From Candidatus Woesearchaeota archaeon (lineage in GTDB: Archaea > Nanobdellota > Nanobdellia > Woesearchaeales > WAPY01), in assembly GCA_049700835.1 (NCBI GenBank), contig JBNAUL010000001.1, positions 308,043 through 372,042 of the forward strand: DNA of 64,000 nt. Direction: 5' to 3'. The notes beneath the pieces are model-generated. The model had not been told where the DNA came from. It saw only the letters and a program-made list of their open reading frames with translations, and made no database searches. Both the position numbers and the translations under genes were made by a program. Positions 1 to 34,919 of the stretch are shown one piece after another. Each line of letters opens with the position of its first letter. The first letter of the stretch is position 1.

Positions 1-178
1 GTAATTTTGGTATGGTTGAGGTTTATTTGGATGGTTTGAGGTCTAGGGTTGATAGTGTTTGGAGGGGTTTGGGTAGGGTTGCTCCTGTTTTTGAGCGTCG
101 TTTGGTTTCTCGTGATGAAGTTTTGCGTAGTGTTGAGGAGGCTAGGAGGGAGAGGCAGAAAGCCATAAAAGAAGAAAA
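1..178 (+). repeat. Exact copy of 4456-4633 (T/G-wobble block; probably extends upstream of window)
   Basis: Direct base-by-base comparison, offset 4455. Confidence 0.95.
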
Positions 179-500
179 ATCTTCTGAAAAAGAAAAACAA
201 AAAGATAAAGAAAAGAAAAAGGAAAAGATAGTAAAACCTCTTGTTTTTGACAACGGCGCAATGGTTGGTTCAATAGAAGAATTATTAGACGCTTTACCTC
301 CGATGAGTGTTTCTGTGTTCAGTAAACATGTAAATCAGTCAAAGAACGACATTAAGGATTGGATTGAAAAGGAGTTTAAGGATGAGCAGTTAATAAAAGC
401 AGTTAGTGTTTTAACTAAAAAGGAGATGATAGACAACATAAAAAAATATTTAGAAGAAAAGAACAAAGATAAGAAAGAGGAAAAAGAAGAAAAGAAATAG
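1..500 (+). CDS. C-terminal part (5'-truncated by window) of a paralogous membrane-anchored HerA/VirB4-like ATPase, ending in a DUF5752-like domain
   Basis: nt 1-178 are identical to 4456-4633 of the downstream ATPase. The tail has a divergent DUF5752-like motif (VFDNG..VGSIEELL...FSKHVNQSKNDIKDWI). Confidence 0.8.
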   Translation, partial: NFGMVEVYLDGLRSRVDSVWRGLGRVAPVFERRLVSRDEVLRSVEEARRERQKAIKEEKSSEKEKQKDKEKKKEKIVKPLVFDNGAMVGSIEELLDALPPMSVSVFSKHVNQSKNDIKDWIEKEFKDEQLIKAVSVLTKKEMIDNIKKYLEEKNKDKKEEKEEKK

Positions 501-689
501 ATGTGCACATAAAAGGAACTCAGTGAAATCTAAATTTACTAATTTAAATTATTAAATTAACAAATCTAAATTTTATGTTTTTGTTCTCTTCAATCTTTTT
601 TTGGTTGTTACATTCATTTAAAATATTTAAAATCAAATTTTTAGAAACAGAACAATTGTGAATTTTAGCAATTGTGTAAGTAATACTTT

Positions 690-807
690 TACATACTTAG
701 TATGTATTAGTAAGTAAAGTAATTTTAAGCGTTACAATTATTATAACTTTTAAAAAAGAGATATAAAACAGAAACATTTATATATCAATATACATATTTA
801 GTATGTT
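690..807 (+). promoter_or_regulatory. Putative archaeal promoter with operator palindromes
   Basis: Perfect 8-1-8 palindrome TACATACT-T-AGTATGTA (690-706) and a near copy TACATATTTAGTATGTT (791-807) flank a BRE/TATA-like GAAACATTTATATA (771-784), upstream of two RHH genes. Confidence 0.5.
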
Positions 808-909
808 TTAGTATGATATTTCATTATGGGGTGATGCTCTATAAGAAAACAAGCGCGCGAGCAGGAAAAAAATGCTGCATATGAAAATAAGAATTCTAAA
901 AAAGATTCT

Positions 910-1164: not shown

Positions 1165-1297
1165 GGAACTGCTGGACTGGATAGATAACAAAATTAAGAA
1201 GAGAATTTTTGCCAATAGGAGTCATGCTTTTGAATTTTTAATAGCAAGATTGATGGAAAACAACAAGCTTCAGAGCGAAGATGAAAACAAGAGATAA
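1133..1297 (+). CDS. Second RHH protein, 54 aa (not in ORF track)
   Basis: Manual translation MKERITITLNEELLDWIDNKIKKRIFANRSHAFEFLIARLMENNKLQSEDENKR. It overlaps both neighbours and shares 45 identical nt with the first RHH (1066-1110 = 1199-1243). Confidence 0.8.
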   Translation: MKERITITLNEELLDWIDNKIKKRIFANRSHAFEFLIARLMENNKLQSEDENKR

Positions 1298-4200
1298 AAC
1301 CAAAGATTTAGGAAAAGGGAAAAACTTGAAAAATCTTAAAAAGCATTTTGACGAAGGCGGATTTAGGGCAACATTTTATGCCTTGCTGGCAGCAATACTT
1401 GCAATCCTTGCAATAATTGTTCTCATACATATTAAGAATTACATTGGATATATGGCACTTCAAACAAGAGCAGGTTCAATCTCTGAATTGAAGATTGACC
1501 TACGATTGCCAGCATCGATATGGAGCGGATTTTACGGTTTAGGGCTAATGGTTCCTGGATATACAGAACAACAACTTGATGTTGCAATTGGCAATACAAT
1601 TAAGAACAAGCACTTGGTTTTTGACTGCTTGAAATACGATGAAGAAAATCCTCCTGAAATTTATGCTTCAACCTCTCCTGTCATTCTCTGGGAAACACTA
1701 AGCCCAGCAACAACAGACATGGTTGACAATTACTTGGAAGTAAGCCCTGATTACATAATGTCAGGCACAAATACCTTCACAACGACTATGACAATAAGAT
1801 TAGGAGATAGAAACATAACAAACATTCCAGCAACACATACTAAAAAATTTGGAGCTCCTGACAGCATGCTCTTTGACATTGGAGTTTTGAGAGACGCAAA
1901 CAACAACTTAGTTTTTGTAACTCATGTTACAGACTATGTCAGGGGCTTTAACAACGAACTTGTAAACTATCAAATGCTACTTCCTGTAAAATCAGATACG
2001 ACACCTGTTTATTATTTCTTTAGAGACCCTTATGAGGAGTGTCCTGCAGGCCCAGCACCAGCAGTAAATACTACTTTGTATGGTTATGTTTTTGACAACG
2101 AAACATTGGAGGCATTAGCGAATGTTACAATAAGGATACAAGGAATAGAAGCCCTGACAGACGAGAATGGATTTTACAACATAACAGCATTGGACGGAAC
2201 TTATAACTTGTTTGGTTCAAAAGAAGGTTATCATAACTATATAACAACAATAAATTTGACACCTGACAACTCAAGCACTCCTGAGAGAGAAGACATAAAA
2301 GAATTCAACTTTACAATGCGAAAAATACATGGTCTTGAGTTTGGTAACGGGACGCTTAAAGGTATGGTAACAGATTCAGGTTCTAAACAGCCGTTAATCA
2401 ATGTTTCAATAATCATAGCAGGAATTTTAGTCTATACTAATACTTCAGGAGAATACGAAATAAACCTTACAGAAGGCAACCACACATTAATCGCTTTAAA
2501 ACAAGGATACAAAGATTTTTACAATTTTAGCGTTCCTGTAATAAGAAACAATGTTACAAATTACAATTTCTCAATGACCCTGTTGCCGCCACCGCAAGAA
2601 GCGCAAATCCAAAAGACAGGAACAACAGAATTCACTTCCAATGCCCCTCAAGTCCCTCCGCAGATACAGGAACCTATTGAGATAATAGACCACATAGTTT
2701 CAATGAGAATGATAGATGAGCAACTTAGAAAGGACTCTTTCATTGACAGATTGATGACTATAAAAAGTTACAAGAGAACAACAGCGCAAATAACATTGTC
2801 TGTTTTAGGAGATGTCGCTGATATGGTTCTGCTTGATAAATCAAAATTGATAATAGAACCACAAGGAAGCGAGAACTTAAGCATAAGATTGTTGGCAAAC
2901 AAAGAGCCAGGAATCTATGAAGGGGTTTTGGTCATGCAAGGTGATTTTGAGGATAGAATACCTATAAGAATTATTGTCTATGAAAAAGAGAGGTTGCCAA
3001 TTGAATCAATGCTTATAAAAGTAACTCCACTCAAAGATGTCATAAGCCCTGGAACTGATTTAAAGTTCAGGGTTTCATTAACTAATTTGTTGAAAGAACA
3101 GTACTACAATGTGACTTTGAAATACTATTTGATAAATGAAAAGACAAACGAATCAATATTCTTAGGAGATGATTATGAGATACTGCAGACCTCCTTATCA
3201 TTAATAAAGTCCTATAAAACAAATAGTACAATAGAAGAAGGTTTTTACAGAATTGAAGTTAAGACAGAATACTTAAACTTTGAATCCTATGCAAGTACAA
3301 TCATAAGAATAGCAAAACCATTCTACATGTATGCCCTGTTCGGCATTCTCCCTCTATGGCAATTGTTCCTGATAATTTTGGTGGGTTCTATATTGAGTTT
3401 TGCTTATGTTCGTTATCGTGTTTTTAGGAGGTCTAGGCTTAGGTATGGTGTTTCTGTTGATGTTAGGAGTTTGCGTCGTGTTTCTGATAAGTTGGGTTTT
3501 GTTGGTAAGGTTGCTGAGGTTGGTGTTCCTTTTTATTTTGATTTGAATTTGTTGTCTACTCATTGTATTGTTGCTGGTGCTACTGGTGGTGGTAAGAGTG
3601 TTGCTGCTCAGGTTTTTGTTGAGGAGTGTTTGAAGCGTGGTGTTGGTGTTTTGGTTTTTGATCCTACGGCTCAGTGGTCTGGTTTTTTGAGGGCTTGTTC
3701 TGATGTTAGGATGTTGGGTTTGTATTCTGGTTTTGGTTTGCGTAGGGGTGATGCTCGTGGTTTTCCTGGTAATGTTCGTTTGGTTAGGGATGCTAGGGAG
3801 GTTGTTGATGTTAGGCGTTTTTTGAAGGCTGGTGAGATTAATGTTTTTGTTTTGAGTAGGTTGGAGCCTGAGGATATTGATTTTTTTGTTGCTAATACTG
3901 TTCGTGAGGTTTTTAGGGCTGGTTTTGATGAGTTTGGTGGTTTGCGTTTTTTGTTGGTTTATGATGAGGTTCATCGTTTGTTGCCTAGGTTTGGTGGTTC
4001 TGGTGAGGGTTTTGTTCAGATTGAGCGTGCTTGTCGTGAGTTTCGTAAGTGGGGTGTTGGTGTTGTTTTGATTAGTCAGGTTTTGTCTGATTTTGTTGGT
4101 GAGATTAAGGCTAATATTAATACTGAGGTTCAGGTTAGGACTCGTGATGAGGGTGATTTGCAGCGTGTTCGTGAGAAGTATGGTGAGGAGTTTTTGAGGG

Positions 4201-5081
4201 GTTTGGTTAGGGCTAGTGTTGGTACTGGTTTGTTTGAGAATCCTGTTTATAATGGTGGTAGGCCTTTTTTTGTTAGTTTTAGGCCTTTGTTGCATAGTGT
4301 TTCTAGGTTGTCTGATGGGGAGTTGGATGCTTATGATCGTTTTAATGGTTTGGTTGATCAGTTGGGTTTTGAGTTGGATTCTTTGGAGGGTTTGGGTGTT
4401 GATGTTTTTGATTTGCGTTTGGAGTTGAGGTTGGCTTTGGATAAGTTGAAGGTTGGTAATTTTGGTATGGTTGAGGTTTATTTGGATGGTTTGAGGTCTA
4501 GGGTTGATAGTGTTTGGAGGGGTTTGGGTAGGGTTGCTCCTGTTTTTGAGCGTCGTTTGGTTTCTCGTGATGAAGTTTTGCGTAGTGTTGAGGAGGCTAG
4601 GAGGGAGAGGCAGAAAGCCATAAAAGAAGAAAAGAAGGCAAAGGGAGAAGAGGAAGCATCAGAAGAAGAATTTAAAGAAGAAACAACCGAAGAAACAGAA
4701 GAAAATAACAACAAAAAGGAAAATAAAGAAGAACAGAAAAATCAAGATGTCAATAAAGAAAATAAAAACCTTGAAAACCAGAATGAAAAAAATGAAATTA
4801 AACCTGATAAAATTGAACTTTTGAAAAAGGAAACAGAGCCGCAATTCTATTTTGTTTTGGAAAATGGAAAACAACTCAAGAGCATTTACGATTTAATTGA
4901 GGAATTAGAAATTATGAGTGATGATGTTTTTTATCATCATGTTAATGATTTTAAGAATGATTTTGAGAATTGGGTTAGGTTTGTTTTTTTGAACAATGAA
5001 TTGGCTGATAAGATTTCAAAAACCAAAACAAAAAGAGACATGTTAAAAGCGATGGGTGAGTATATTGGAAGAAGCAGTTGA
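1281..5081 (+). CDS. Membrane-anchored HerA/FtsK/VirB4-like (DUF87-type) ATPase with extracellular subunit-like and Ig/carboxypeptidase-regulatory-like domains and a C-terminal DUF5752-like domain
   Basis: N-terminal hydrophobic segment, two GxVxD..T..xxNVxI repeats, a TM near 3330-3410, Walker A GATGGGKS, VFDP, Walker B LLVYDEVH, REFRKWG, ISQ and HHVNDFKNDFENW. Confidence 0.85.
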   Translation: MKTRDKTKDLGKGKNLKNLKKHFDEGGFRATFYALLAAILAILAIIVLIHIKNYIGYMALQTRAGSISELKIDLRLPASIWSGFYGLGLMVPGYTEQQLDVAIGNTIKNKHLVFDCLKYDEENPPEIYASTSPVILWETLSPATTDMVDNYLEVSPDYIMSGTNTFTTTMTIRLGDRNITNIPATHTKKFGAPDSMLFDIGVLRDANNNLVFVTHVTDYVRGFNNELVNYQMLLPVKSDTTPVYYFFRDPYEECPAGPAPAVNTTLYGYVFDNETLEALANVTIRIQGIEALTDENGFYNITALDGTYNLFGSKEGYHNYITTINLTPDNSSTPEREDIKEFNFTMRKIHGLEFGNGTLKGMVTDSGSKQPLINVSIIIAGILVYTNTSGEYEINLTEGNHTLIALKQGYKDFYNFSVPVIRNNVTNYNFSMTLLPPPQEAQIQKTGTTEFTSNAPQVPPQIQEPIEIIDHIVSMRMIDEQLRKDSFIDRLMTIKSYKRTTAQITLSVLGDVADMVLLDKSKLIIEPQGSENLSIRLLANKEPGIYEGVLVMQGDFEDRIPIRIIVYEKERLPIESMLIKVTPLKDVISPGTDLKFRVSLTNLLKEQYYNVTLKYYLINEKTNESIFLGDDYEILQTSLSLIKSYKTNSTIEEGFYRIEVKTEYLNFESYASTIIRIAKPFYMYALFGILPLWQLFLIILVGSILSFAYVRYRVFRRSRLRYGVSVDVRSLRRVSDKLGFVGKVAEVGVPFYFDLNLLSTHCIVAGATGGGKSVAAQVFVEECLKRGVGVLVFDPTAQWSGFLRACSDVRMLGLYSGFGLRRGDARGFPGNVRLVRDAREVVDVRRFLKAGEINVFVLSRLEPEDIDFFVANTVREVFRAGFDEFGGLRFLLVYDEVHRLLPRFGGSGEGFVQIERACREFRKWGVGVVLISQVLSDFVGEIKANINTEVQVRTRDEGDLQRVREKYGEEFLRGLVRASVGTGLFENPVYNGGRPFFVSFRPLLHSVSRLSDGELDAYDRFNGLVDQLGFELDSLEGLGVDVFDLRLELRLALDKLKVGNFGMVEVYLDGLRSRVDSVWRGLGRVAPVFERRLVSRDEVLRSVEEARRERQKAIKEEKKAKGEEEASEEEFKEETTEETEENNNKKENKEEQKNQDVNKENKNLENQNEKNEIKPDKIELLKKETEPQFYFVLENGKQLKSIYDLIEELEIMSDDVFYHHVNDFKNDFENWVRFVFLNNELADKISKTKTKRDMLKAMGEYIGRSS
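3393..4633 (+). repeat. T/G-wobble block covering the whole ATPase domain; shared with upstream paralogue
   Basis: By manual reading all codons in 3393-4571 end in T or G. The last 178 nt are duplicated at 1-178. Confidence 0.85.
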
Positions 5082-5265
5082 TATTCCGGAATCAAAGTAT
5101 TTTGTTTTAAAAGACGGAAAAAGATTAGCTTCAATTCAAGAGTTAGTTGAAGCTTTAAGGGTTATAAGTGATGATGTTTTTTATCATCATGTTAATGATT
5201 TTAAGAATGATTTTGAGAATTGGGTTAGGTTTGTTTTTTTGAACAATGAATTGGCTGATAAGATT
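4917..5265 (+). repeat. 99-bp exact direct repeat (4917-5015 = 5167-5265) encoding the DUF5752-like core
   Basis: Direct comparison, offset 250; the first 25 codons all end in T/G. Confidence 0.95.
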
Positions 5266-6671: not shown

Positions 6672-9600
6672 ATGAAGTTTTTAAGAGAAAAAGACAAACG
6701 GATAGAGAAAAACAAGCAAGTTTTTTGGTTAAATCTGCTTTTAAAAGCACTCTTAGATACTAATTTAGATAAAAAAATAAATAAAAAACCAGAAATAAAA
6801 AAATTGATGTTGCTTTTTATTTTGATATTTTTATTAATAGCAACATTAAATTTGAGTTCAAGCTTTGCACTTAAAAACTTGAATTCAAAAATAAGAATTG
6901 ATAAAAAAGAGGTTTTTGCAGGAGAAAAGATTAACATAAATCTTAACAGATTTTTTGAGAACTCTAAAATATTAATAAACTGTACTATTGAAAACAAAAC
7001 TGAAACATATAAACTATTCAACATTAAGAACAGTTTAACATTCACTCCTAAAAAACAAGGAAATTGCACGATTTATTTAATGTACGGAGAGGAAGTATTA
7101 GATTTTGATTCTTTTGTTGTTAAAAATCATGAAGAGAGCATTAAAGACACTGCTGTTTTATCTCAAAACAATTCTTATGAATTGAATATTTTAGAAAATC
7201 AAGAAAACGGCAAAGCAGGCATAGTAGAAAATGCAGAAGAATTTGCAAAAGAATTGCTGAAGAATGAAACAAAACAGATTGAGATTAAAAAGAGGAACAT
7301 TATTGAAAATGAAACAAAAAACAGAATACTCCATATTAAAGACAGCAGAAACAGAGAGATAAAAAAAGTAGAGACAAAGATAGAAATTTCAGAGAACAAC
7401 GATAAAGTTAATTCTAAAAAATTAATAGCAGAATTTAAAAATGCGAATGTTAATAAAATAGAATTTGAGAACATTGAACTCAGTCAGGAATCAGAATTGA
7501 GAATTGAAGATATTCCTTTGGAAAGAGTTAAGTCAAAAATTAAATTTAACAATCCAATAAAAGCATACGCAATAGATCCAACGAGATTAAACTTTACAAG
7601 AGCAAAACTAACATCAACAGCAATTGGAAATCAACTTTTAAAGTGCAAGGAATGGGATTTTGAAAAAAAAGAATGCAACGGCACTTGGATTAAAATAATG
7701 GATTTAATGCCAAATGAGGAATACACAATAGAAATAACCAAAGAAGACCCTGCATTCGTTGAAACAGGAATATCTGCAATAAACACAAAAAAACCAATAT
7801 ACAAACCAGGAGAAAATGCAGAAATCTTCATAACCGTATTAGATATTGAAGGATATTTAGTTTCAAATGCCGAGGTCAATCTTACAATAAGAACCCCAAA
7901 CAATCAAAGCTTTTACTTCTCAACATTAAACAACACAATAGCAGAAGTGCAAAAAGGGATTTACAAAGCAGAATATAACAGTACATTAGAAGAAGGAAAA
8001 TACTTGCTTGAAACAAGAGCAGCAAATTCTTATTTAGAACTTAACTTTAATTCAAGCTTTTCAGTATTAAGTTATTATCCTTATGATATAGTAAGGGAAA
8101 CTCCTTTTAGCATAGACCCGATAAGGCAAAGCTTAACAACAAAAATAAGAGTTGTTTCTTTTAGAGATAATAAATTCAATCTTACAGAATTCATTCCAGC
8201 AGAGTTTATAATAATAAACACAACAGCAGATTATCAAACAACGAATGAAGAAATCAAAACTAAAGAACTAAAATGGGTTGATTTAGAAAATAATTCTATC
8301 ATAGAATACACAGCAGTGCTTCCACCAAAATATCCAGAACTTTACACAATAAAATCATTCGTGGAAGATTCTTATGGTTATTTTGAAGAAGCAAGACCAT
8401 GGTTTTTAGCAGCTGATCCTGCTACTGGAAGAGCGCTCATTGTTTATAAAGTAAACTCTAACAATCCTTACTATAATATTTGGAACGGAACAAGTTTGTC
8501 ATCAGCATCAACAGCAACTAGTGTTGGAGCTAGACCTGATTGGATAGAATTAGCTTCTAATCCTAATTCTGAAGAGATAATAATGGCAACGCTTGACAAT
8601 GCAAATGATATTAATGTTCAAGTATGGAATGGAACAGCGTGGATTTCTCAATTGGAACTCGAAACAAATTCTAATGTTAATTATAAAAGTTTTGATGTTG
8701 CTTATGAAAGTTTTAGTGGAAGAGCATTGGTTGTTTATACTGATGGAACAGCAATTCCTAAATACTATATTTGGAATGGAAGTTCTTGGCTTGGAGAGTA
8801 TAGCGCAAGCAACACCGGTTCAACAGTGAGATGGGTTGAATTAGCATCAGACCCAAATTCAAATTATATAATGTTAGTAACTGAAGATGGAGATGCAGCA
8901 GCTGACATCAACGTTCAAATTTGGAATGGGAGTTCTTGGGGAGCTACTGTTGAACTAACAACAAATGCTTTTCCAAACTATAAAAACTTTGGTGTCAGGT
9001 GGAGCACTAATGATTATGCAATAGTAGTTTATGGAACAGCAAGTTATGAACAAGTTAGATACGCTATTTATAACAAAACAACAAGTTCTTGGCCAATAAC
9101 AAACGGTTTAGCTCTATCGGTAGAAACAGGAGGAGGCACAGATTATCCTTATTGGATTCAACTAGAGGCAAGCAGAACAAATGATTACATGATTTTATTA
9201 GCATCTGACAATGAAGATGATATTCATGCAAGTTATTGGAATGGAACTTCACAAAGTTGGGTTGATTTAGGACAGATAACAGGGGCTCTTTCATATGCTG
9301 CTTACAGGCCATTTGACTCTGCATTTGAGACATCATCTGGAGAAGCAATTATTGTTTATTCTGACAATAATCAAGGAAACATAAGATATAGAACATGGAT
9401 TAATGGTATTTTAAGCGGAGCATCAAATGTTTACAATGTTGGTGAAGAACAATACTGGTTAAAATTAACCTCTAATCCTGAAACAGATGAAATTTTGCTT
9501 GCATCAATAGATTCTGGAAGCGATTTAACACTTCATGTTTGGAATGGAAATTCCTGGAGTTATTTAGGAGAGTTGTCAAACGGAGAAGTTACTTCAACAA

Positions 9601-10671
9601 GAGATGGGGTTGATGTTGCTTATGAGTTAAAAGCAACAATACCTCCAAGTTTTACAATTTGGAACATAAGCAATTCTACAGGAGTTATTCCTGACTACAG
9701 CAATCAAACAAGAGGGCAAATAATAAGAGCTTATGCTTTGTGGAACCAAGTTATAAATCAATCGTACGCAGAACACAATGGTTTAGGAACACTATTGAAT
9801 TTTACAATAGACCCTCCTTATACCAATTCTTGGACAAACTACACCTTAAACACTACTGATACAACAATAATAAACACTTTAGGATTGATAAACATCTCAA
9901 TATGGGCTAAGAACAGGTACGGAATTTGGGCAAGAACAACCCCAACACTGCACTTTTATCTTTGGGCTTTGTTAAATATAACAAACATAAGCATAACAGA
10001 CGATTACATCAGCATTGGAGAAACAACAACAATCACTTGCGAAGTAAAAGATGCATATTTAAATATTCCAATAGGCAATTATAATGTTTCTTTTTATCTG
10101 AACAATTCTTTAATAGGTAGTTCTATTACAAATACTCTTGGCTTAGCAAGCATAAACTATACAGGAACAGTTGATGGGGTTTATAATGTAACCTGCAACA
10201 TAAGCAATGATTTTTCAAGATGGTATAAAGTTTCGTCAAGAAATTGGGCTAATGTTACATTAATAGTAACCTCTCAAGATGCAACTCCTCCAGTAATAAA
10301 TTATGTTTATGATTATCCAGATCCTGTTGCATATGATGGTATTGTAACAATAGGAGCAAATGTTACTGACAATGTAAATATTAGTACTGTTGTTGTTGAA
10401 ATAAATAATGTTAATTATACAATGAACTATGTTGAAGGAGATATTTGGAGTTATTTTTATAATGTTAGTAGTCTAAGCATCGGAACTTACAATTACACTG
10501 TTTATGCAAATGACAGTGCTGGTTTAAAAGCAGATCCAGTTAAGGGAAACTTCACAATAACAAACCAATTGTTTGTTAAAGTTGATACTGATAAACAATC
10601 GTACGAGTTAGGGGAAAATGTTAGTGTTTTTGTTAATGTTTCTGTTTCTGGTGTTGGTCAGGATGTTGGTG
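6672..10671 (+). CDS. Giant secreted surface protein 1, N-terminal part (signal/TM, MG2-like, WNGxxW beta-propeller repeats, Ig-like); start probably later than 6672
   Basis: Hydrophobic LMLLFILIFLLIATL segment, TKKPIYKPGE motif, repeated (I/V)WNG(T/S)xW blades; the frame is open into the N gap. Confidence 0.8.
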
Positions 10672-10771
10672 NNNNNNNNNNNNNNNNNNNNNNNNNNNNN
10701 NNNNNNNNNNNNNNNNNNNNNNNNNNNNNNNNNNNNNNNNNNNNNNNNNNNNNNNNNNNNNNNNNNNNNNN
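10672..10771. other. Scaffold gap (100 N) inside giant gene 1, probably a collapsed repeat
   Basis: Open frames on both sides; the flanks carry the T/G-wobble signature. Confidence 0.9.
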
Positions 10772-16700: not shown

Positions 16701-17229
16701 TTCAGGGAGTTTGTTGTTAAGAAACCTTAACAACTCTTATGTTTATGTTTGGAATGTAAGCGAAGCTAATGATAGCAACATCTTTGCAGCAGATTATGAC
16801 AGCAACATAAATTGGAGCGCTTTGAAGGCAATAAGCAGGGATTTAAATGATAACTTTGTAAGCAACGATTTCTCAGAAATAGATCATGCTTTGGGAATGC
16901 AGAATTATACTGATTCTGTAAATAGAACTTACACAATAAACAATCTACCAAAAGCAACAAGTTCATTTGCAGTTTTTAACAAGTTGATTGAAAATGTTCC
17001 TGTTGTAGAATCATTCAACAACTCAAACTTTATGACAGGAATACTGTGGGATTACAGCGATGGTAGCAATGAGTACAATGGAACGCAAGATTTAGTTTTT
17101 ATAACAAGAACGAACATTGGAAAACAAGGAAGCTTTGATGTTTGCGATTATGAATTTAGGGTTCCTTCAAATCTCAAAAGTTATAAGGGAACAACAGATA
17201 GCGTAGTTTTTTACATCGAGATTAAGTAA
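10772..17229 (+). CDS. Giant secreted surface protein 1, C-terminal part: tandem Cys-pair Ig-like repeats, CARDB-like domain, terminal subunit-like domain
   Basis: Repeats PxVxLxxPxNN...F...D....C.L...GxxxWNVxCxD, PDLKI...ATIHNLG...IEEEDETNN, and the ending VVFYIEIK. Likely one gene with 6672-10671. Confidence 0.85.
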
Positions 17230-23300: not shown

Positions 23301-26048
23301 ACAGATATCTTTGGAAGTCCATTGATAACTAATGTAACAAAAGCAGATGTTATATTTGGAAACACAACAGTAGATTGGTGGAACACTTCTTGGATTTATA
23401 GAAAACAGATTTTTATAAATAATTCTTTTAGGGCTCCTATTTATAAAACAATTGATTTAAACATTTCTGGAATATCAACTTACATAAATAGTTGCGAAGA
23501 GTTAAGAATAGTGCAAACAAATGGTTTTAATCATACTTTAATTCCTTCACAAATAGTTAGTAATAGCAGCAAGACTTGGTGCGTTATAAGATTTAATGCT
23601 AACTTAACAAAGCTTGGCTTAAATGATAATTATTGGCTTCATTATGGAAATCCAAATGCAAGCTCAACAGGACAAACAGTTAGTTTAGCAGGACTAAAAA
23701 TTCAGAGAAATTGGTATTCGATGACAACAACTTCTGCAACAATAAACATTGAACCGGTAAATGTAAATAATGCGTTTGTTATGCTTACAGTAAATATTGC
23801 AAGTTCTCTGCCTTCAAGATCAGAAATAACAGCAAGAATTTCTGCAAGTAATCAATTATTGTTTGAAAGATATGCTGCTGTTACAACAGCAAACATTTCT
23901 TGGCAGGTTGTCGAGAGTTCTGAAATAAGCGTTCAGAGAGCAACAGTTTCTTTTGCAACAACTCAACTCAATGCAACAATAAACTTAAACAACGAGGTTA
24001 ATTTGAACGAATCGTTCATAATAGTTCTTGGAAGGGCTAATTCAGGAACAGCAGGAAACAATAATCAAGGATTCTTTAGAGCGATGTTTTTGAACTCAAC
24101 AACAGTTTATGTTGAAAGAGCAACTTCAGGAAGTGCTGCAATAGCAGAATTACAAATTATTCAGTGGAGTGGAGCAAGAGTTCAAAGCGGTAATTTTTCG
24201 TTTTCAACTTTAGAATACAATATAAGCGTCGGCTCTGTTAATTTGTCAAGAGCATTCTTAATCTTTGGAACTGCTGTTTCAGGAGTAAGCACAATAGATG
24301 GAAATTACATTAGAGGAAATATAACCAATCAAACAATATTGAGATTCTATAAAGAAACAACCTCTGGAACAGCATACATAAGTTGGTTTTTAGTTGAGAT
24401 GCCTGAAGAGTTTGATGTACAAAAAAACTCATCTCAGATAACAGCAGACGCAAACATAGCAATAAATCCTGTTGTGATGCAGAAAGCATTCCATGTACAA
24501 TCTTGGTCAGCAACAACAGCAACAACAACTTACACAAACGGCTTCATGAGATTTGAATTGAAAAGTCCAACAAACTTTTGGGCTGATGTTGTTGCAGGAA
24601 CAAATACAAAGAAAATTGTTTCTTTTATAGTAGAAGAAAAATCACTTAATGTAACATTAGGAGTGCAGCAAGAATTCAAAAAAGAATCTTCTGGAGAAAC
24701 AGATATTTACGGAATATTTACTTTTGATTGGAGCACTAAAAATCAGAGTTTAGGAACTTACAGTTTAGTTTTTATTGCTGAGAAAGAAAATTTTACCACA
24801 ACAAGGGCTTACAATACTTTTGAAATAATTCCTGACACTACAAAACCAACCGTGACTTTACTGCTGCCAGAAGATAACTATACAACAGGCGTTGGCTACA
24901 TAAACCTTTCATACATTCCATTTGATTATAACTTGGCCAACTGCACCCTGTACATAGGAAACGAATATTCCTTTAATCCTAATGTTACAAATTCAAGCCC
25001 ATTAAATAATGAAACAAATTATTTCAACAATGTTTTCTTTAGAGTTGGAATTTATTATTGGAATGTTAAGTGCGAGGATACAGAAGGAAACTTTGGATTT
25101 GCAACACAGAATTTCACACTGAACATTTCAGGTCCTGACTTAGTAATAACGCCTGAAAGAATATTCTTCAATGAGACAAACTCGTCTGAAGGTTCTAACA
25201 TAACTGTTTTTGCAAACATAACAAACTTAGGACTAAGCGATGCTGATAAACCATTCATTGTTCAGTTTTATTATGGTGATCCTGACTTAGGAGGAACACA
25301 ATTGAATTCAAACATTACAGTTCCAAATCTTTCAAGAAACAATTTTATAATTGTAAACACTACTTTTATTGTAAAACCAGGAAACAACAACATCTTTGCT
25401 GTTTTAGATCCAAACAACATAGTTAATGAATCAGATGAAACAAACAACAAAGCAAACAAGAGCATCTCAATACCAATATATCAGTATTATTATGGCAATA
25501 TAAGCGTGGAAATAATGTTAGGAGATTATTTAAATAAAACATTATTAAAAGTTGAAAGTTCAGAAACAAACTATGGTAACATAATAATATCAGATGTTGA
25601 TTCTTCCTTCTCATTCAATGATTTAATTCCATTAACAAGAAACATAAACAATCAAAAAACAAACAACGATTTTACGGATTTAGACATAATACTAAATACA
25701 AGCGATGCTAATGATTCCATAAAGAACACTTGGGGTTTAGGAACAGACGATCCTATAGCAATTGCAACATTCAATATTTCAGGGAGAATTATCGATAATG
25801 TTCCAATAATAAACTCAACAAATAACCCCAACTTCATAACAGGAATTCTTTGGGATAAAGCAGACGATTTATCCAACAATTACCAATTTGATTATAACAA
25901 CAAAGAAGATATAGTTTTCGTTACAAAAATAAATCCTAAAAAACAAGGCGCTTATGGAATTTATGATTATGAAATAAGAATTCCATCGCTGCTAAAAAAC
26001 TATAAATCAGGAACATCTTTGGTTAATTTTTATGTTGAGATTATCTGA
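17388..26048 (+). CDS. Giant secreted surface protein 2 (2,886 aa): signal/TM, beta-propeller, Ig-like repeats, FN3-like, DUF2341-like, lectin-like repeats, CARDB-like, terminal subunit-like domain
   Basis: Single long ORF with SVSAFNSSHFVVGW blades, YYWRVIAYD, WWNTSWIYRKQI...YGNPNAS, PDLVI...VNESDETNN, and the ending LVNFYVEII; very many NxS/T sequons. Confidence 0.9.
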   Translation: MMKAKLMHKNKNKNQKKALEFLSSVLSLVLFSFLVMFSILAQIRTVFSELEQLNNRVIMLDKKYYQLNETVEIKLKYLIRDAELFIKTPTHNYKFLGSLEERIKFVLEEEGTYEIVLMKNQKVIDNVAFSVNKTKTYSEIITNNETKEKEFGKTAQQITDLNCIKIEKENFFLGEAVKIQINKNIMNDEDLKGKLGLKIITNEGTYSILGEISEEVNFIPSIEGESLIVLYHINGTAICERTFFVISKLKKAGENLSKTIGIAEQNETIKEKNESQLFISKNESLKLREKEDLIKSKLRVRIKNKKNELSDAVLNFEFFNETENTEANQDKPQEKFRRIVLNINNSEFKNIIIENTIMKENSNLTFEELSIENKKIIKDRFARKTFLINYEKANFSNLIIRAEATGNELWVCEDWDLINNSCNEEPKKVLDLNLGEEFELNISKEQIIEGRNILYFETITILNPITFLRDNEVWVVEFNTTGIADLRISSNNSNWAEINNDLEETIDEMKFLDLKCGDKSLKDKIKVVDYEGNIKGLLEIRENESFRIQKFIVENYSCNETSYFSNLMLKAGYAVLRFDFGEQTAYAIDPLVNISNTNITSLDMAILDEETFVVAYCDDTNDRVAFRVYNTNGSLVSGEVVVDSSLAVSACDYTSVSVSAFNSSHFVVGWVDSGSSYVSFEVFDVFGNVFGSRVDVDTTAGTSRSVSVSAFNSSHFVVGWYDQPDADATFRVYTSSGSAVTNAIDVDTNAGTCNAVSVSALDNVNFVFGYYDMASSDVTFRTYTSSGGAVSAITDVDTDAGVGSFSVSVSGVNSSHFVIGWFDQTSGYVRFRLYSVYGTIVGTEVVPDTAVGTTASGVMQDVAAINQTSFVYSWFDSIADVGTFFSTYSTFGVTTPTAIVSNISVLNNSLKYHAVAGYQPSTNIGFCQGNKFVIAFVNTTGFYWKTYFTNGAEWDGICPDLTPPNVTLIYPSNNTLLEQKNVDFNFTVYDKKTLIIPNCSLWANFTGVFQEIATVYNISINTITNITMNDLEDGYYVWNVKCYDGSNNSAFAINNNTLIINFYPPNISNPEINTTTINQSEFIKFNATITDEFGISYAFITIKYPNGTYKNISLVKNNDEYYINFNDTIQLGIYNITFIWANDSFGKSSNQSLNLYFQVVPSPPSEFDLISPYNKTESKNLVPTLTWQQTQEQTFANYTIQISKDSSFTTIDYAYYTFEITNTSYTVDYALDANSMYYWRVIAYDVFGNYRISTNYFVYITDTISPTITLIYPENNTILSQNQITFKYVPNDANTLNTCALYGNFSGSFSKIVESNNITKGVENNLTTTIVNEGIFAWNVWCNDTATNNGFSTQNYTLMLDFSPPKINLMYPNNNSIENETNIITFIANATDTYSNISFCELIIDGEIKDTNYEITRGVSFNFTVFLQNGNYTWNVNCTDTNGFENSSEIFNLSIFVIDAQPPFITINSPRNNTFLSYDTILINYTPQDSTGIENCSLIMNNAINQTDYEIENFVPNYFTIILEEGIYNFKIGCYDNSSEFNYAETEEYTLIVDLTNPAVLLEFPENNSYSRSEVSFAYTPIDLNLDSCILYGNFSGIWEEQAYDNSPINNNSNEFSRTLNDSIFVWNVWCNDSSGRNSFASENFTIKVDSTSPFYYNNISYPETPTTYEPNKEYYFIINWSDNFGIKELVIEQNFTGQILNITLINLSIENESQSNSTISYNYSLQNLNASIYYYKWYVTDFNNNTNSTPKYDYVVEKSDSEIKLKLNGVENNITIDEDNYVNISAEVIKPITGYLEIYVNNDLIAFGNSPLSINYFFEDPGIYNITAIYNQTNNYKLSYATYFLTTNDITPPNINLTQPSQSALIGYATINFNYIVYDKSNLSNCSLIINSTINKTNYNVSVGEVNTFTQIFEEGNYSWKVECYDIFGNYNISEERNFTYIKSDKIIGYAQTSKPQYQKGEPAILIANTTDIFGSPLITNVTKADVIFGNTTVDWWNTSWIYRKQIFINNSFRAPIYKTIDLNISGISTYINSCEELRIVQTNGFNHTLIPSQIVSNSSKTWCVIRFNANLTKLGLNDNYWLHYGNPNASSTGQTVSLAGLKIQRNWYSMTTTSATINIEPVNVNNAFVMLTVNIASSLPSRSEITARISASNQLLFERYAAVTTANISWQVVESSEISVQRATVSFATTQLNATINLNNEVNLNESFIIVLGRANSGTAGNNNQGFFRAMFLNSTTVYVERATSGSAAIAELQIIQWSGARVQSGNFSFSTLEYNISVGSVNLSRAFLIFGTAVSGVSTIDGNYIRGNITNQTILRFYKETTSGTAYISWFLVEMPEEFDVQKNSSQITADANIAINPVVMQKAFHVQSWSATTATTTYTNGFMRFELKSPTNFWADVVAGTNTKKIVSFIVEEKSLNVTLGVQQEFKKESSGETDIYGIFTFDWSTKNQSLGTYSLVFIAEKENFTTTRAYNTFEIIPDTTKPTVTLLLPEDNYTTGVGYINLSYIPFDYNLANCTLYIGNEYSFNPNVTNSSPLNNETNYFNNVFFRVGIYYWNVKCEDTEGNFGFATQNFTLNISGPDLVITPERIFFNETNSSEGSNITVFANITNLGLSDADKPFIVQFYYGDPDLGGTQLNSNITVPNLSRNNFIIVNTTFIVKPGNNNIFAVLDPNNIVNESDETNNKANKSISIPIYQYYYGNISVEIMLGDYLNKTLLKVESSETNYGNIIISDVDSSFSFNDLIPLTRNINNQKTNNDFTDLDIILNTSDANDSIKNTWGLGTDDPIAIATFNISGRIIDNVPIINSTNNPNFITGILWDKADDLSNNYQFDYNNKEDIVFVTKINPKKQGAYGIYDYEIRIPSLLKNYKSGTSLVNFYVEII
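19218..19964 (+). repeat. 747-bp T/G-wobble beta-propeller module, copy 1
   Basis: Matches 33114-33860 with one mismatch seen (G19251/A33147). Contains an internal 48-bp exact repeat (19350-19397 = 19500-19547). Confidence 0.95.
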
Positions 26049-26433: not shown

Positions 26434-27375
26434 GTGGCTGAAATGTTCTTTTCAAGAAAGAAGAGGAAGGTTGAAACCCAAGAGGAAGAGAAGGAACTTC
26501 CAATGCTGGCAAAGGATTTGCTTGAGAAAACACGAACCATAGAAACAATACAGATGCCTATAGAACAGGAAAAGAAGGAAAAAAAAGAAAAGAGAAGGTT
26601 TTTCTTTTTTAAAGCAAAGGAAAACAACAAAGAAAAACAAAAAGAAGAAAAAACAAAAGACGCTTTAAAAGATAAGGAAAAGTTTGAAGTAAAACCGATT
26701 AAAGAAGAACAAAAAAAAGAGGAAAAAACAGAAACAAGAGAGTTTAAGACGCAGGAAATAAAGAAAGAACTTAAAGAAGAGATGGAACTTGATTTCGAAG
26801 ATTTAATATCTTCTAATAAAGGTTTTTTTGCAAAACTTTTAGAAAACATCTATGAAAAATCCTTCGAGGAATTAGCAAAAAAGGACTTGATTGAAGAAAT
26901 AAGGAATTATTTTGCATCAGAAAAGAACAAGAAAGAGATTGAATACGAGAAAAAAGCGGCTTATTTGAGATTGAAGAACTTGCTCTTGGAGCTTTCAAAA
27001 CTTGAGGAGAAATGGGAAAATCAAAATATAGTTTTAGAACAATACAAAGAACAGATAAAAACAACAGAAGAAAGAATAAGAGAACTCTCAGAAATAATAA
27101 AGAGGGAAGCGCAAAAGCTCAGTTTGGAAGCAGAAATACCTTCTGAAAAGGAATTCGTTCTAAACGATGGGAGAAGATTAAGAAGCTTGAAAGAGCTATT
27201 GGAAGCTTTGAAAACAATGAGCGATGATTTATACAAGCATCATGTTAATAGTTCAAGAAATGATTTTGCAAATTGGGTAAAAGATGTTTTTAAGAAAGAA
27301 TCATTAGCAGAGAAAATAAGAAATGCAAAAGCAAAGGAAGAAACGATAAAAATACTAAGTTCTGAATTGGAATAA
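26434..27375 (+). CDS. Charged coiled-coil protein with C-terminal DUF5752-like domain
   Basis: EFVLNDGRRLRSLKELLEAL..MSDDLYKHHVNSSRNDFANWVKDVF. Confidence 0.75.
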   Translation: MAEMFFSRKKRKVETQEEEKELPMLAKDLLEKTRTIETIQMPIEQEKKEKKEKRRFFFFKAKENNKEKQKEEKTKDALKDKEKFEVKPIKEEQKKEEKTETREFKTQEIKKELKEEMELDFEDLISSNKGFFAKLLENIYEKSFEELAKKDLIEEIRNYFASEKNKKEIEYEKKAAYLRLKNLLLELSKLEEKWENQNIVLEQYKEQIKTTEERIRELSEIIKREAQKLSLEAEIPSEKEFVLNDGRRLRSLKELLEALKTMSDDLYKHHVNSSRNDFANWVKDVFKKESLAEKIRNAKAKEETIKILSSELE

Positions 27376-29293: not shown

Positions 29294-29388
29294 AAACCAT
29301 TTTTATTTTTTATTTTTTATAAATTCATACAATGCATACAATGCATGATAACATGCAAAAATTTTGCAAGCAAGTAAGGTGATAAAAA

Positions 29389-29586
29389 ATGCCTAAAGAG
29401 AAGGAATTTGTTAAGGTTGTTTGGCAGGAAACTCCTAATTCTGTTAGGGTTATTCAGGGATACTATTTTGACGAAGGAGATTTCATAAGAGTAAAAGGCG
29501 ACTATAAAGAAGTGCTAATTAGAAAGAGCAGGATAATAAGCATTGAGCAGAAACAACCAACAAAGGGTGAGAAAAATGGAAAATAA
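29389..29586 (+). CDS. Small beta-rich protein, possibly Sm/Hfq-like fold
   Basis: AGGTGA RBS; VKVVW...VIQG...DFIRV...EVLIRKSRIISIE resembles Sm1/Sm2 strands; duplicated at 31279. Confidence 0.6.
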   Translation: MPKEKEFVKVVWQETPNSVRVIQGYYFDEGDFIRVKGDYKEVLIRKSRIISIEQKQPTKGEKNGK

Positions 29587-30301: not shown

Positions 30302-30311
30302 GGTGATTTTC

Positions 30312-31226: not shown

Positions 31227-31278
31227 AAATTATTGATTTCATTTTAAACCAAAGTAAAACCTAAAAGAGAAGATAAAA

Positions 31279-31455
31279 ATGTTCAAGGAAAAGGAATTTG
31301 TTAAGGTTGTTTGGCAGGAAACTCCTAATTCTGTTAGAGTTATTCAGGGATACTATTCTAACGAAGGAGATTTCATAAGAGTAAAAGGCGACTATAAAGA
31401 AGTGCTGATAAAAAAGGACACAATAATAAGCATTGAAAAGAAGCAGAAGAAATAA
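31279..31455 (+). CDS. Second copy of small Sm-like protein, 58 aa (not in ORF track)
   Basis: Manual translation MFKEKEFVKVVWQETPNSVRVIQGYYSNEGDFIRVKGDYKEVLIKKDTIISIEKKQKK; 31291-31406 matches 29401-29516 with 3 mismatches. Confidence 0.75.
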   Translation: MFKEKEFVKVVWQETPNSVRVIQGYYSNEGDFIRVKGDYKEVLIKKDTIISIEKKQKK

Positions 31456-31669
31456 GATTATTTTTCCAAGAACTTGTTCACTAAAAATTTTTAAATTCAC
31501 AATTAATTTTTGTTTTTTAGAAAACTTTTATTCTTCTGTATCAAGAAATTTTTTAGTTTTTTATTTTAACCAAATCTTTAAATTATTTTTTATTTTTTAT
31601 TATTTTTTATTTTTTGCGCACTTTTATATTCCAATTTTAATTTTTTTAATTATTTAAATTTGCTTTTTT

Positions 31670-32785
31670 TTACTTTTCCTCAAACTCAGCAACAACTTCC
31701 GTGTGTTTTGTTTGAGGGAAAAAATCAAAAAAGGCAACAGATTTTAGATCATAAGAATTAAATTTTTTAATATCCTTTGAGAGTTCTATTGGATTGCAGG
31801 AAATGTAAATTATTTTCTTTGGTTTTAATTCTTTAATAGCATTCAACGCTTTAGGATGAATCCCAGACCTTGGAGGATCAATTATAACATAAACATTGTT
31901 TTTCTCAACACTCAACCTCTTAATTTTTGAAGCATCAAGATTAAAAACGCTTATGTTTTTAGCATTATTTATTTTTATGTTTTCAATTGCAGACTCAACA
32001 CAACTCTTATTATTTTCCACTAAAAAAACATGCTTGAAAAAATCAGAGTTTATTATTCCAAAAGTCCCAACTCCAGAGTATAAATCTAATAAAAAAAGTT
32101 CTTTTGTTTTTATTCTTGTTTCATTCATTATTAAGTTATTAACATACAAATGCATTTTTTTAGCCATAGAATAATTGTTCTGGAAAAAACCCTGCACTGA
32201 AAAATGAAAAATCTTATTTAAAAGATTAATGCTTAATTTAGCATTTCCTTTTGCAACAAAAAAATCATCAGAAATACTAACATCAGTGTTTTCAGGAACA
32301 AAAGTAACAACAATGTTTTGAGCGCTTGAAATTTTTGAATACTCTCTTATTCTTTCAACAGCAGCCCTTATTCTTGCAGAATTAGAGTTAAGTACAAAAC
32401 TTATTGATGATTCATTAGCAACTCTTACAACAGCATACCTAAAAGTTCCTGAATTATTTTCAACATCAAAATAATCAAGATCCTTAAAAAAATCCGTAAT
32501 TTCTTTTAACAATTCATTAATTCTGTTTTCAGCAATATAGCAATACTCAACATCTATAATCTTTTTCCAATCCCTTTTCTTTCTTAAACCCAAACCGTTT
32601 TTATGAAAGATAAAATCCATCCTGTTGCGGTAATTAAATGGTTTATCATAAAAAACTTTTATTGAATCCTTATCAACACTAAGCAGTTTTGAAAGCAATT
32701 CTGTTTTTTTATCTATTTGAACTTTATATTCAAGATTTTGTAAACTGCAACCCCCGCAATTCTTAAAATAAGGGCAAACAATCAT
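31670..32785 (-). CDS. RlmD/TrmA-family RNA (uracil-5)-methyltransferase
   Basis: CPYFKNCGGC Fe-S motif, YRNRM, FFQ, DLYSGVG, DPPR, YISCNP, FFPQTKHTE. Confidence 0.9.
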   Translation of the reverse strand: MIVCPYFKNCGGCSLQNLEYKVQIDKKTELLSKLLSVDKDSIKVFYDKPFNYRNRMDFIFHKNGLGLRKKRDWKKIIDVEYCYIAENRINELLKEITDFFKDLDYFDVENNSGTFRYAVVRVANESSISFVLNSNSARIRAAVERIREYSKISSAQNIVVTFVPENTDVSISDDFFVAKGNAKLSINLLNKIFHFSVQGFFQNNYSMAKKMHLYVNNLIMNETRIKTKELFLLDLYSGVGTFGIINSDFFKHVFLVENNKSCVESAIENIKINNAKNISVFNLDASKIKRLSVEKNNVYVIIDPPRSGIHPKALNAIKELKPKKIIYISCNPIELSKDIKKFNSYDLKSVAFFDFFPQTKHTEVVAEFEEK

Positions 32786-32912
32786 AAAAAACAAGAAAAC
32801 AAAAAACAATAAAAAACTTTTGAAATTTCATAAAACATTCGCAAAACAAAATTTAAATTAAAATATTATAAAAACTTTTTTAAACAAAACAAGAATAATA
32901 AAATATGAAATT

Positions 32913-34919
32913 ATGAGCAAACAAAAAACAAACAAAAACAAGCAGGAAAATAAATCAACAAAAAATGCTCTTAAAAAAATAATTTTTGTAAGTTACTTTA
33001 TTGAAACTTTAATCATAATCTTCTTTTTCAATCCATTATTAGTTTCAGGAGTAACAACAACCTTCTCTAATAATCAAATTACATCTCTATCTTTAGCAGC
33101 CTTAACAAGAAACACTTTTGTTGTTGCTTATTGTGATGATACTAATAATAGGGTTGCTTTTAGGGTTTATAATACTAATGGTAGTTTGGTTTCTGGTGAG
33201 GTTGTTGTTGATTCTAGTTTGGCTGTTAGTGCTTGTGATTATACTAGTGTTTCTGTTTCTGCTTTTAATAGTTCTCATTTTGTTGTTGGTTGGGTTGATA
33301 GTGGTAGTTCTTATGTTAGTTTTGAGGTTTTTGATGTTTTTGGTAATGTTTTTGGTAGTAGGGTTGATGTTGATACTACTGCTGGTACTTCTAGGAGTGT
33401 TTCTGTTTCTGCTTTTAATAGTTCTCATTTTGTTGTTGGTTGGTATGATCAGCCTGATGCTGATGCTACTTTTAGAGTTTATACTAGTTCTGGTAGTGCT
33501 GTTACTAATGCTATTGATGTTGATACTAATGCTGGTACTTGTAATGCTGTTAGTGTTTCTGCTTTGGATAATGTTAATTTTGTTTTTGGTTATTATGATA
33601 TGGCTTCTTCTGATGTTACTTTTAGGACTTATACTAGTTCTGGTGGTGCTGTTAGTGCTATTACTGATGTTGATACTGATGCTGGTGTTGGTTCTTTTAG
33701 TGTTTCTGTTTCTGGTGTTAATAGTTCTCATTTTGTTATTGGTTGGTTTGATCAAACTTCTGGTTATGTTAGGTTTAGGTTGTATTCTGTTTATGGAACT
33801 ATTGTTGGCACTGAGGTTGTTCCTGATACTGCTGTTGGAACAACAGCATCAGGAGTAATGGTATCAACAGGAGCGAGTTCAAACCAAAAAATAATCTTTT
33901 CATGGCATGACACAACAACAGATGTTGGAGTTGCTTTAAGAACTTACAACCTTGATTTAACTCAATATTCAAGCGAAATTCCAGTGCAAAGCAATTCATT
34001 AAGATACAACGCTTTAACAGGTTATCATCCTGCAACAGGAATTAGAATTTGTGATGGAAATTTTGTAATAGCAGTTGTAAATTCAACAACCCAAGCATTC
34101 TTCAGAACTTATTATGCGAATGGAACAGAATGGAATGGAACATGCTCTAATTCAGCGCCAAACATAACAAAAATTTATATAGATGACGAGATAACAAACC
34201 CTAGTGGGGAGATTGATTTAACAGCAGGAAGTTCAAAAATAGTTTATTGCAATGGAACAATAAGCGATTTAGAAGGTTATGATGATATAAAGAATGTTTC
34301 AGCAGTTCTGTATGCTTCTGGAAGCGGAGTTTTGCCAACTGATTCTGAGAACAACAACACGCTTTACAAAAATAACACTTGCTCTCTATCATCAGGGTTT
34401 GAAACAACAAAGAAGAACTTTAGTTGCGCTTTTAATGTTTTGTACTATGCTAATAATGGAACTTGGACATGCAATGCAACAACATATGATAATAGCAATG
34501 CTTATTCAAGTTCAACAAACACTACAAAAATAAATATTTTGGTTGCTTTGAATGTTTCAAATGCAATAATAGATTATGGAATCTTGGGTCCAGGAGAAAC
34601 AAGCCCTTCATCTTCCCAACTAACAATAACAAACCTTGGTAACATAAAAATTGATTTAGTGCTTAACGGCACAAACATGAGTTGCAATCCTATTGGTTCA
34701 ATCTTTGTTGAGAACCAACACTACAATATTACAGGAACAGACCAAAGCTATGATTTAATGAGAGCTTTAACATTAACTCCTTTCACAGCAACAGACTTTG
34801 ATTTAGATAAGAGAGTAACAGCAGAATCAACAAGAACAACATATTGGCGCATAAGAATACCTGCAGGAGTAAAAGGATTTTGCCAAGGAAACATAACTTT
34901 AGCCGTGCAAGCAGGATAA
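32913..34919 (+). CDS. Secreted adhesin-like protein: beta-propeller module plus family B Ig/pilin-like domains
   Basis: Signal/TM, propeller shared with giant protein 2, ending YWRIRIPAGVKGFCQGNITLAVQAG. Confidence 0.85.
   Translation: MSKQKTNKNKQENKSTKNALKKIIFVSYFIETLIIIFFFNPLLVSGVTTTFSNNQITSLSLAALTRNTFVVAYCDDTNNRVAFRVYNTNGSLVSGEVVVDSSLAVSACDYTSVSVSAFNSSHFVVGWVDSGSSYVSFEVFDVFGNVFGSRVDVDTTAGTSRSVSVSAFNSSHFVVGWYDQPDADATFRVYTSSGSAVTNAIDVDTNAGTCNAVSVSALDNVNFVFGYYDMASSDVTFRTYTSSGGAVSAITDVDTDAGVGSFSVSVSGVNSSHFVIGWFDQTSGYVRFRLYSVYGTIVGTEVVPDTAVGTTASGVMVSTGASSNQKIIFSWHDTTTDVGVALRTYNLDLTQYSSEIPVQSNSLRYNALTGYHPATGIRICDGNFVIAVVNSTTQAFFRTYYANGTEWNGTCSNSAPNITKIYIDDEITNPSGEIDLTAGSSKIVYCNGTISDLEGYDDIKNVSAVLYASGSGVLPTDSENNNTLYKNNTCSLSSGFETTKKNFSCAFNVLYYANNGTWTCNATTYDNSNAYSSSTNTTKINILVALNVSNAIIDYGILGPGETSPSSSQLTITNLGNIKIDLVLNGTNMSCNPIGSIFVENQHYNITGTDQSYDLMRALTLTPFTATDFDLDKRVTAESTRTTYWRIRIPAGVKGFCQGNITLAVQAG
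33114..33860 (+). repeat. 747-bp T/G-wobble beta-propeller module, copy 2
   Basis: Offset 13896 from 19218-19964. Confidence 0.95.

Follow-up and report, generated by a model that had tools for sequence, protein, structure and literature searches.

Repeats saturated with T- and G-ending codons in a woesearchaeal genome are archaeal GRINS

GRINS, genetic repeats whose nucleotide skews are intense, have been described in bacteria and in some eukaryotic polyketide synthases (PKSs). They are commonest in actinobacteria, and the main text of the original description leaves their mechanism open (Nivina 2021, PMC8256042), as does the available text of a 2023 follow-up (PMC10394414). Here we report that two long duplicated coding segments in a 64,000-nucleotide stretch of a woesearchaeon's genome (the window; positions 308043-372042 of contig C1 in genome G000, which comprises 1.07 Mb in 4 contigs and is 98.66% complete) are saturated archaeal GRINS. 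New are the polarity of their edges, a sign of skew centred on the replication gene cdc6, and an association with NucS. These regularities make the mechanism of GRINS testable; they point to one enzyme and predict both the sign and the gradient of the skew.

Results

A saturated ATPase tract

A HerA/DUF87-like ATPase domain, recognised by Pfam, is duplicated at 3394-4633 on the plus strand, within the open reading frame (ORF) 1281-5081. The sequence-only reading that preceded this analysis had counted about 390 codons here without A or C at the third position; we found 393 T/G-ending codons in a row at 3393-4571 (log10 P -123, from the genome's own amino-acid-specific codon usage). The run is followed by one GAA, 13 further T/G-ending codons and then a 3' edge that is unconverted yet identical between copies. 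As had also been read, the end of the domain recurs at 1-178 of the plus strand. These positions match 4456-4633 exactly and form the 3' tail of a full, exact 1,240-bp copy (C1:306981-308220), which begins about 1.06 kb upstream of the window and ends at window position 178. The GAA at window 4574, the sole break in the run, is present in both copies and reads GAG in sequencing run X1 and in genome G001 of the same genus; close to the 3' edge, both copies may have acquired a new A by its spreading.

Third positions in the tract are T wherever possible and otherwise G. Four-fold sites comprise T 175, G 2, C 0 and A 0, two-fold pyrimidine sites T 85 : C 0, two-fold purine sites G 47 : A 1, and leucine is TTG at a ratio of 46:1. 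Arginine is split nearly equally between AGG and CGT in the HerA tracts of three genomes (25:23, 28:21 and 21:22), with CGN accounting for 5.6% of arginine codons genome-wide; a repeat on contig C3 differs in this respect (24:4). Compared with 14 unskewed orthologues, the tract is enriched in Val (ratio 2.18), Cys (1.94) and Gly (1.61) and depleted in Thr (0.39), His (0.42), Gln (0.45) and Pro (0.71), and Trp is not raised (0.80). The composition shifts away from Lys, Ile, Met and Thr and towards Arg, Val, Phe and Gly, and the frames stay open.

The block, whose support by reads had been in question, is not an assembly artefact, because G001 and contigs of three separate sequencing runs (X1, X2 and X3, with X1 or X2 perhaps the source sample) carry it as well. 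Runs were compared as contigs; those with small word shares were left out, and coverage by the RNA run X10 extended to 3 of 30 bins. Third positions differ between G000 and G001 by 0.039 inside the tract and by 0.445 elsewhere (235 genes, part of G001). A related Candidatus Woesearchaeota metagenome-assembled genome is 96% identical across the HerA-like domain. Collapse of repeats during short-read assembly may have made the identity of the two copies, an exact 100%, slightly too high.

Agreement with the GRINS definition

The second long repeat is a 747-bp module with 150-bp internal periodicity, found on the plus strand at 19218-19964 (copy 1, in ORF 17388-26048) and 33114-33860 (copy 2, in ORF 32913-34919), with one base (G/A) differing between the copies. 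Its A/C-ending codons stand at positions 121, 214, 228, 232 and 242-248, that is, one in the first 213, just as the sequence-only reading had it; copy 1 closes with seven A-ending codons. The label 'propeller' attached to the module was not confirmed: neither Pfam nor NCBIfam gave a match on 32913-34919, and CARDB was the only Pfam match elsewhere in 17388-26048.

The process behind these blocks had been called undescribed, yet both long repeats fit the published definition of GRINS. They measure about 1,240-1,246 bp and 747-751 bp (definition: >500 bp), at DNA identities of 100% and 99.9% (>80%). Their skews are 0.64/0.52 for HerA and 0.43/0.49 for the module, against 0.13/0.16 in the unique 5' flank. 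The enrichment of Gly, Val and Cys and the loss of Thr, His, Gln and Pro agree as well, with Trp excepted, and the copies are identical within G000 and within G089 and diverged between these genomes. Two other long repeats, on contig C2, fall short on TA skew (0.07 and 0.05).

Two further plus-strand pairs, of 99 and 171 bp, lie below the length cut-off. The DUF5752-like 99-bp repeat (4917-5015 and 5167-5265) opens with 25 T/G-ending codons, as previously counted, followed by 2 exceptions, whereas a diverged third copy (27220-27318, plus strand, 63% identity) has A/C-ending codons at 14 of 33 positions and is indeed the unskewed internal control it had been taken for. The second pair (29385-29555 and 31275-31445) lies in small ORFs (29389-29586 and 31279-31455), and its 5' part is T/G-ending and its 3' part A/C-rich. 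The 5' conversion claimed for 29401/31291 thus stood; the label 'Sm-like' was not confirmed, NCBIfam matching neither ORF. Five unrelated modules of the window are affected, and the edges of skew fall inside genes.

Across the 748 called genes of at least 150 amino acids in G000, the five longest T/G runs (411, 393, 393, 120 and 120 codons) all lie in duplicated or collapsed-repeat sequence, and the longest outside any detected repeat is 48 codons. Several exact repeats, in C2 and at C1:460-472 kb, are only partly skewed or near background. Two collapsed two-copy repeats at contig ends (C3:114017-116013 and C2:1-659) are also T/G-rich; the former, near the C3 end, holds the genome's longest run (411 codons). 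Judging from overlaps at their ends, the contigs would be ordered C3, C4, reversed C2. A membrane protein gene on the minus strand (C1:26035-27672) has a T/G-rich 5' half with a 48-codon run and no duplicate detected, possibly a relic or the trace of a lost copy.

Edge polarity and strand

In all six repeat pairs inspected, the 5' edge of identity coincides with the 5' edge of the T/G block within a few codons, and the unique flanks are normal. At the 3' edge, identity continues past the skew, often ending in A-ending codons. Such a comparison of edges is the same on either strand and needs no assumption about the origin. We extended it to 29 repeat rows from three genomes, that is, repeats of at least 90 bp inside called genes with at least 24 informative codons, several of which share a family. 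In 23 of them, G/T content was higher at the 5' homology edge than at the 3' edge.

The sign of the skew tracks the physical strand, not the direction of the gene. In G089, the plus strand is A/C-rich in repeats at 293-531 kb and G/T-rich in repeats at 672-782 kb, whichever way the genes point, and cdc6 lies between the two groups at 588.6 kb. Replication origins of archaea are usually located at cdc6. Three head-on families in G089 are A/C-only on the coding strand (131/131, 92/100 and 143/150), and the coding strand of a head-on repeat in G000 (C1:454665) is A/C-rich. The removal of A and C from the coding strand, as first proposed, is therefore not supported. In G000, cdc6 is found at C1:112 kb, next to an extended intergenic stretch rich in AT. 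The plus strand is G/T-rich in the repeats to the right of cdc6, including one in a minus-strand gene with 49 of 57 codons A/C-ending (z +4.4); a head-on family at C1:460-472 kb is neutral overall and bipolar. Single-copy genes on this contig are weakly of opposite sign, and four-fold GC/TA skew did not clearly locate replichores in G000. G101 was fetched after the rule of G/T on the leading strand had been formed (800 of 1,132 kb). All eight of its repeat rows fit that rule, and its repeats and single-copy genes change sign at cdc6 (439.7 kb). Altogether, with cdc6 taken as the origin, the leading strand is the G/T-rich one in 26 of 29 rows, an assignment that is partly post hoc.

Homogenisation in relatives

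Skew follows homogenisation of duplicates. Among 79 HerA loci, only 4 of which have two copies, three are skewed and each has a homogenised copy: L142 and L143 have almost no A/C, and L192, whose tandem copies share an exact stretch of 245 bp, has 21-23% A/C. The remaining 76 loci range from 24% to 68% A/C with T/G runs of at most 20. Five further genomes with paralogs at 65-77% nucleotide identity have 49-60% A/C; the seven paralog pairs in this range are unskewed. Near-identical copies and saturated skew are found together in G000, G001 and G089. The HerA pair of G089, the same as in G000, shows 100% identity along 1,156 bp, and the same module pair is also converted there. Identical within each of G000 and G089, the HerA copies share 72% protein identity between these genomes, and the flanks have diverged. 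These loci uphold the sequence-only reading in so far as it took the skew for a biological feature that goes with homogenised duplicates and is subject to filtering by selection. In a HerA tree, G000 and G089 group together (support 0.997-1.0), even after recoding, and L192 is separate; the skewed branches are long (0.69 versus a median of 0.45).

Other genomes of the order have skewed blocks of both signs in single-copy genes. Strict specificity of the skew to repeats, as the sequence-only reading had it, is thus not supported. A HerA orthologue fragment at a contig end in G013 (L136:2-403) has the opposite sign, with 106 of 134 codons A/C-ending. Loci L054, L055, L058, L061 and L074, from other Woesearchaeota, show G/T versus A/C skew over kilobases, through several single-copy genes and on both strands.

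Pattern and repair genes across the order

We searched 301 genomes of the order for runs of 50 period-3 G/T positions; 158 had at least one match. NucS was called at E below 1e-15 in 116 genomes, with 17 weaker matches counted as negative, and MutS in 100. The two are almost mutually exclusive: 115 genomes are NucS-only, 99 MutS-only, 86 have neither, and the 1 with both has a weak partial MutS match. At least 100 pattern matches were found in 21 of the 115 NucS-only genomes, 1 of the 99 MutS-only genomes and 3 of the 86 with neither (family-mean p for the NucS enrichment 1.5e-4 and 2.7e-5). Seven unpublished genomes (G276, G186, G211, G136, G209, G247 and G116) are included; without them the tallies are 21/115, 1/96 and 3/82. 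Loss of MutS as the cause of the skew was rejected, since MutS-only genomes and those with neither do not differ (p 0.51). The NucS of G000 is full-length, passes NCBIfam NF003270 (229.4 bits versus a cut-off of 216) and is encoded outside the window at C2:421482-422255.

Surroundings of the repeats

Adjoining two HerA-like ATPase fusions, window 6672-26048 encodes proteins of very large size that look secreted and carry Ig-like, MG2 and CARDB domains; it is a putative surface or transport locus with a gap of N near 10.7 kb. An exact 45-bp stretch (1066-1110 and 1199-1243) is common to two small adjoining ORFs, with 5 of 15 codons A/C-ending.

Discussion

A model of keto-biased gene conversion

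We favour, at about even chances, a model in which archaeal GRINS are made by keto-biased ectopic gene conversion, filtered by NucS through rejection of G/T, G/G and T/T mismatches. Its first step is observed, as duplicates are kept identical within each genome and diverge between genomes. A nascent strand would then switch to the other copy, copy it to the end of homology and return, so that the heteroduplex would end sharply at the edge. NucS/EndoMS, if its specificity known from elsewhere applies here, would remove nascent alleles that form G/T, G/G or T/T and let the others pass; the nascent strand would drift to A/C and the template strand to G/T. The leading strand inferred from cdc6 does turn to T, or to G where T is impossible, and a dominance of lagging-strand events would account for this. 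The effect would be strongest at the origin-proximal edge, with rarer leading-strand events giving the opposite sign at the far edge. Ordinary mutations would merely be sorted, without need for a special mutagen, while selection would keep the frames open.

The homogenisation of the skewed copies, the polarity of their edges, the G/T-rich leading strand and the association with NucS speak for the model, as does the slow divergence of the tract, which now lags behind that of its flanks. Several published results are consistent with such a filter. EndoMS cleaves G/T, G/G and T/T and hardly C/C, A/C or A/A (PMC4838380; PMC6159521). In Mycobacterium smegmatis, a donor oligonucleotide on the lagging-strand template is rejected >500-fold for G/T, G/G and T/T only (PMC11551767), from which the sign would follow as observed. 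Deletion of nucS impairs gene conversion in Haloferax (PMC11276520), and NucS is active in Streptomyces coelicolor and restrains homeologous recombination in M. smegmatis (PMC5290159). A NucS filter would also make TTG the absorbing codon for leucine and AGG about equal to CGT, which matches the three HerA tracts and not the C3 repeat. A toy model with invented rates reproduces saturation, the excess of T over G and the gradient; the logic is thus enough to produce them, which does not make it true.

More tentatively, and with doubt prevailing, we propose that NucS-filtered, strand-polar keto-biased conversion is a general evolutionary force in organisms where NucS takes the place of MutS/MutL, which would explain GRINS in Woesearchaeota as well as in Streptomyces PKS genes. 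If true, two opposite skews inside one GRINS repeat would be explained, and proteins would be recoded to contain more Arg, Val, Gly and Phe, whatever the effect on fitness.

A number of observations weigh against the keto-biased model. The 29 rows are not independent, as several share one family; the strand rule in G089 is post hoc, the strand assignment of five C2 rows was fitted, and the repeats of G101 are all co-oriented with the fork. Single-copy skew does not obey the leading-strand rule in G000 and G089, and shows no flip at cdc6 in G036 and G051, nor in G001, G000 and G089. The single-copy blocks of other genomes would need a different source of heteroduplex, and the HerA skew of G000 and G089 may, judging from the tree, share one origin. 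The pattern search is a noisy proxy: among the matches listed (30 loci) were low-complexity tails as well as repeats and single-copy genes of either sign. The link to NucS is a correlation among related genomes, calculated without a tree; within mixed families it runs 8 up, 2 down and 1 tie (p 0.08), 37 of the 115 NucS-only genomes lack any 50-codon run, and 12 NucS-negative genomes have at least 50 matches. The T:G ratio of 175:2 is more extreme than the output of the toy model. Finally, a preprint on M. tuberculosis suggests less NucS repair during recombination (PMC13061034), and GRINS are also reported from phyla that use MutS (PMC8256042). As a separate observation, in G036:C1 and G051:C8 one strand is G/T-rich along the whole contig, before and after cdc6, which is not so in G101; the replication mode of these two genomes may differ from that of G101.

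Other explanations

The main rival, which fits the geometry equally well and had been an option of the sequence-only reading, is exposure of single strands: the strand displaced in ectopic exchange would stay single-stranded within the homology and suffer C-to-U and A-to-I deamination and depurination with insertion of A, and conversion would spread the changes. The same edge, polarity and strand would be expected, and single-copy blocks would be explained more easily. The rival is also favoured, at the expense of the keto-biased model, by the uracil-DNA glycosylase (UDG) family PF03167, which among the four genomes searched gave no match in G000, G001 and G089, the three with the greatest saturation. 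The two best-matching runs are metagenomes from hot springs, and the long branches of skewed HerA would fit as well. However, UDG is present in G101, which is skewed. Fast A-to-G change should leave much G, but only 2 of the 177 four-fold sites in the HerA tract have it; repair from the sister chromosome should expose single-copy genes equally, but those of G000 are unskewed. The tract diverges slowly, reverse gyrase, a marker of heat, occurs in 4 of the 301 genomes, 3 of them without a pattern match, and the association with NucS is not predicted. The deaminase family PF00383, with one match in each of four genomes, is uninformative, as it also matches 12 of 14 controls. On balance we regard single-strand damage as a possible but doubtful cause.

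The GRINS paper itself proposes, in the text available, that skew comes first (PMC8256042): a local error-prone or tautomer-prone polymerase would make the patch, whose low complexity would then promote conversion. Single-copy skewed blocks do exist, one of them at C1:26.9-27.6 kb in G000, and a Y-family polymerase (PF00817) is present in G101. The same family, which bears on the error-prone polymerase genes that the sequence-only reading had wanted searched for, gave no match in G000, G001 and G089. Moreover, identity outlasts the skew at the 3' edge, some exact repeats show hardly any skew, and edges coincide with homology in unrelated genes. L192 already looks like an intermediate that was homogenised before it was skewed. 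We therefore consider this order of events improbable.

RNA-templated conversion of the coding strand by a reverse transcriptase (RT) acting in trans, like that of diversity-generating retroelements (DGRs), had been a candidate of the sequence-only reading, and every block in the window is indeed T/G on the coding strand. RTs are present in 70 of the 301 genomes, but high pattern counts occur in 3 of these 70 versus 22 of the 231 RT-negative genomes, and RVT_1 (PF00078) has no match in G000, G001, G089 or G101. Given, in addition, the A/C-only coding repeats in G089 and at C1:454665 of G000, and the depletion of both copies, which leaves no asymmetry of template and variable repeat, this mechanism is very unlikely and would need a divergent RT together with antisense templates. 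Scarcely any credence goes to an assembly artefact, a foreign origin or selection on translation. Copies can be made exactly identical by short-read assembly, and G001 collapses them at contig ends, but the block recurs in G001 and in contigs of three runs, and five unrelated modules are hit, with edges inside genes and a sign that reverses with orientation.

Whatever the cause, the order offers a natural experiment. Depending on the lineage, one and the same paralog pair is homogenised and saturated, converted in part, or diverged with normal codons, and the order splits almost cleanly into NucS-only, MutS-only and neither. GRINS-like tracts distort trees, codon-based tests of selection and binning in DPANN archaea.

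Comparison with known systems

Repeat-induced point mutation in fungi is likewise targeted to repeats, but it turns C into T on both strands and makes copies diverge. Replication strand bias of the Borrelia type also gives T/G-ending codons on the leading strand, but is genome-wide and weaker; single-copy genes share their skew by replichore in G101 and do not in G000. DGRs cause loss of adenine in a repeated coding segment, and RTs are common in the order. They need an RT and an A-rich template repeat, whereas here no RT was found by the RVT_1 search, C is lost too, and the copies, identical or with one G/A difference, are both depleted. GC-biased gene conversion sorts existing heteroduplex variants, overrides codon usage and shifts amino acids, as in the proposed model. 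It favours G/C on both strands, whereas here T and G accumulate on one strand, and the four-fold counts of the HerA tract, with T far ahead of G and no C, do not fit it.

NucS/EndoMS cleaves keto:keto mismatches only, its gene is present in G000, and in M. smegmatis it rejects donor alleles on the lagging-strand template; it has been described as an anti-mutator and anti-recombination system. Within the accessible literature, we found no paper that links NucS to GRINS, and none of the few checked for it proposes keto-biased conversion. Likewise, the literature searched held no report of archaeal GRINS, Woesearchaeota included, though supplements could list archaeal cases, and the main text of PMC8256042 never uses the word archaea.

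GRINS are the closest match. Shared are near-identical duplicated coding regions, correlated GC and TA skews that are strongest at third positions, enrichment of Gly, Val and Cys with loss of Thr, Gln, His and Pro, abrupt edges, both signs, and gene conversion. The repeats described here differ in their archaeal host and non-PKS genes, in saturation to 0 of 393 A/C-ending codons and in a skew that is also visible in repeats of 99-170 bp, below the cut-off. They differ further in their edge polarity, their cdc6-centred sign and their association with NucS.

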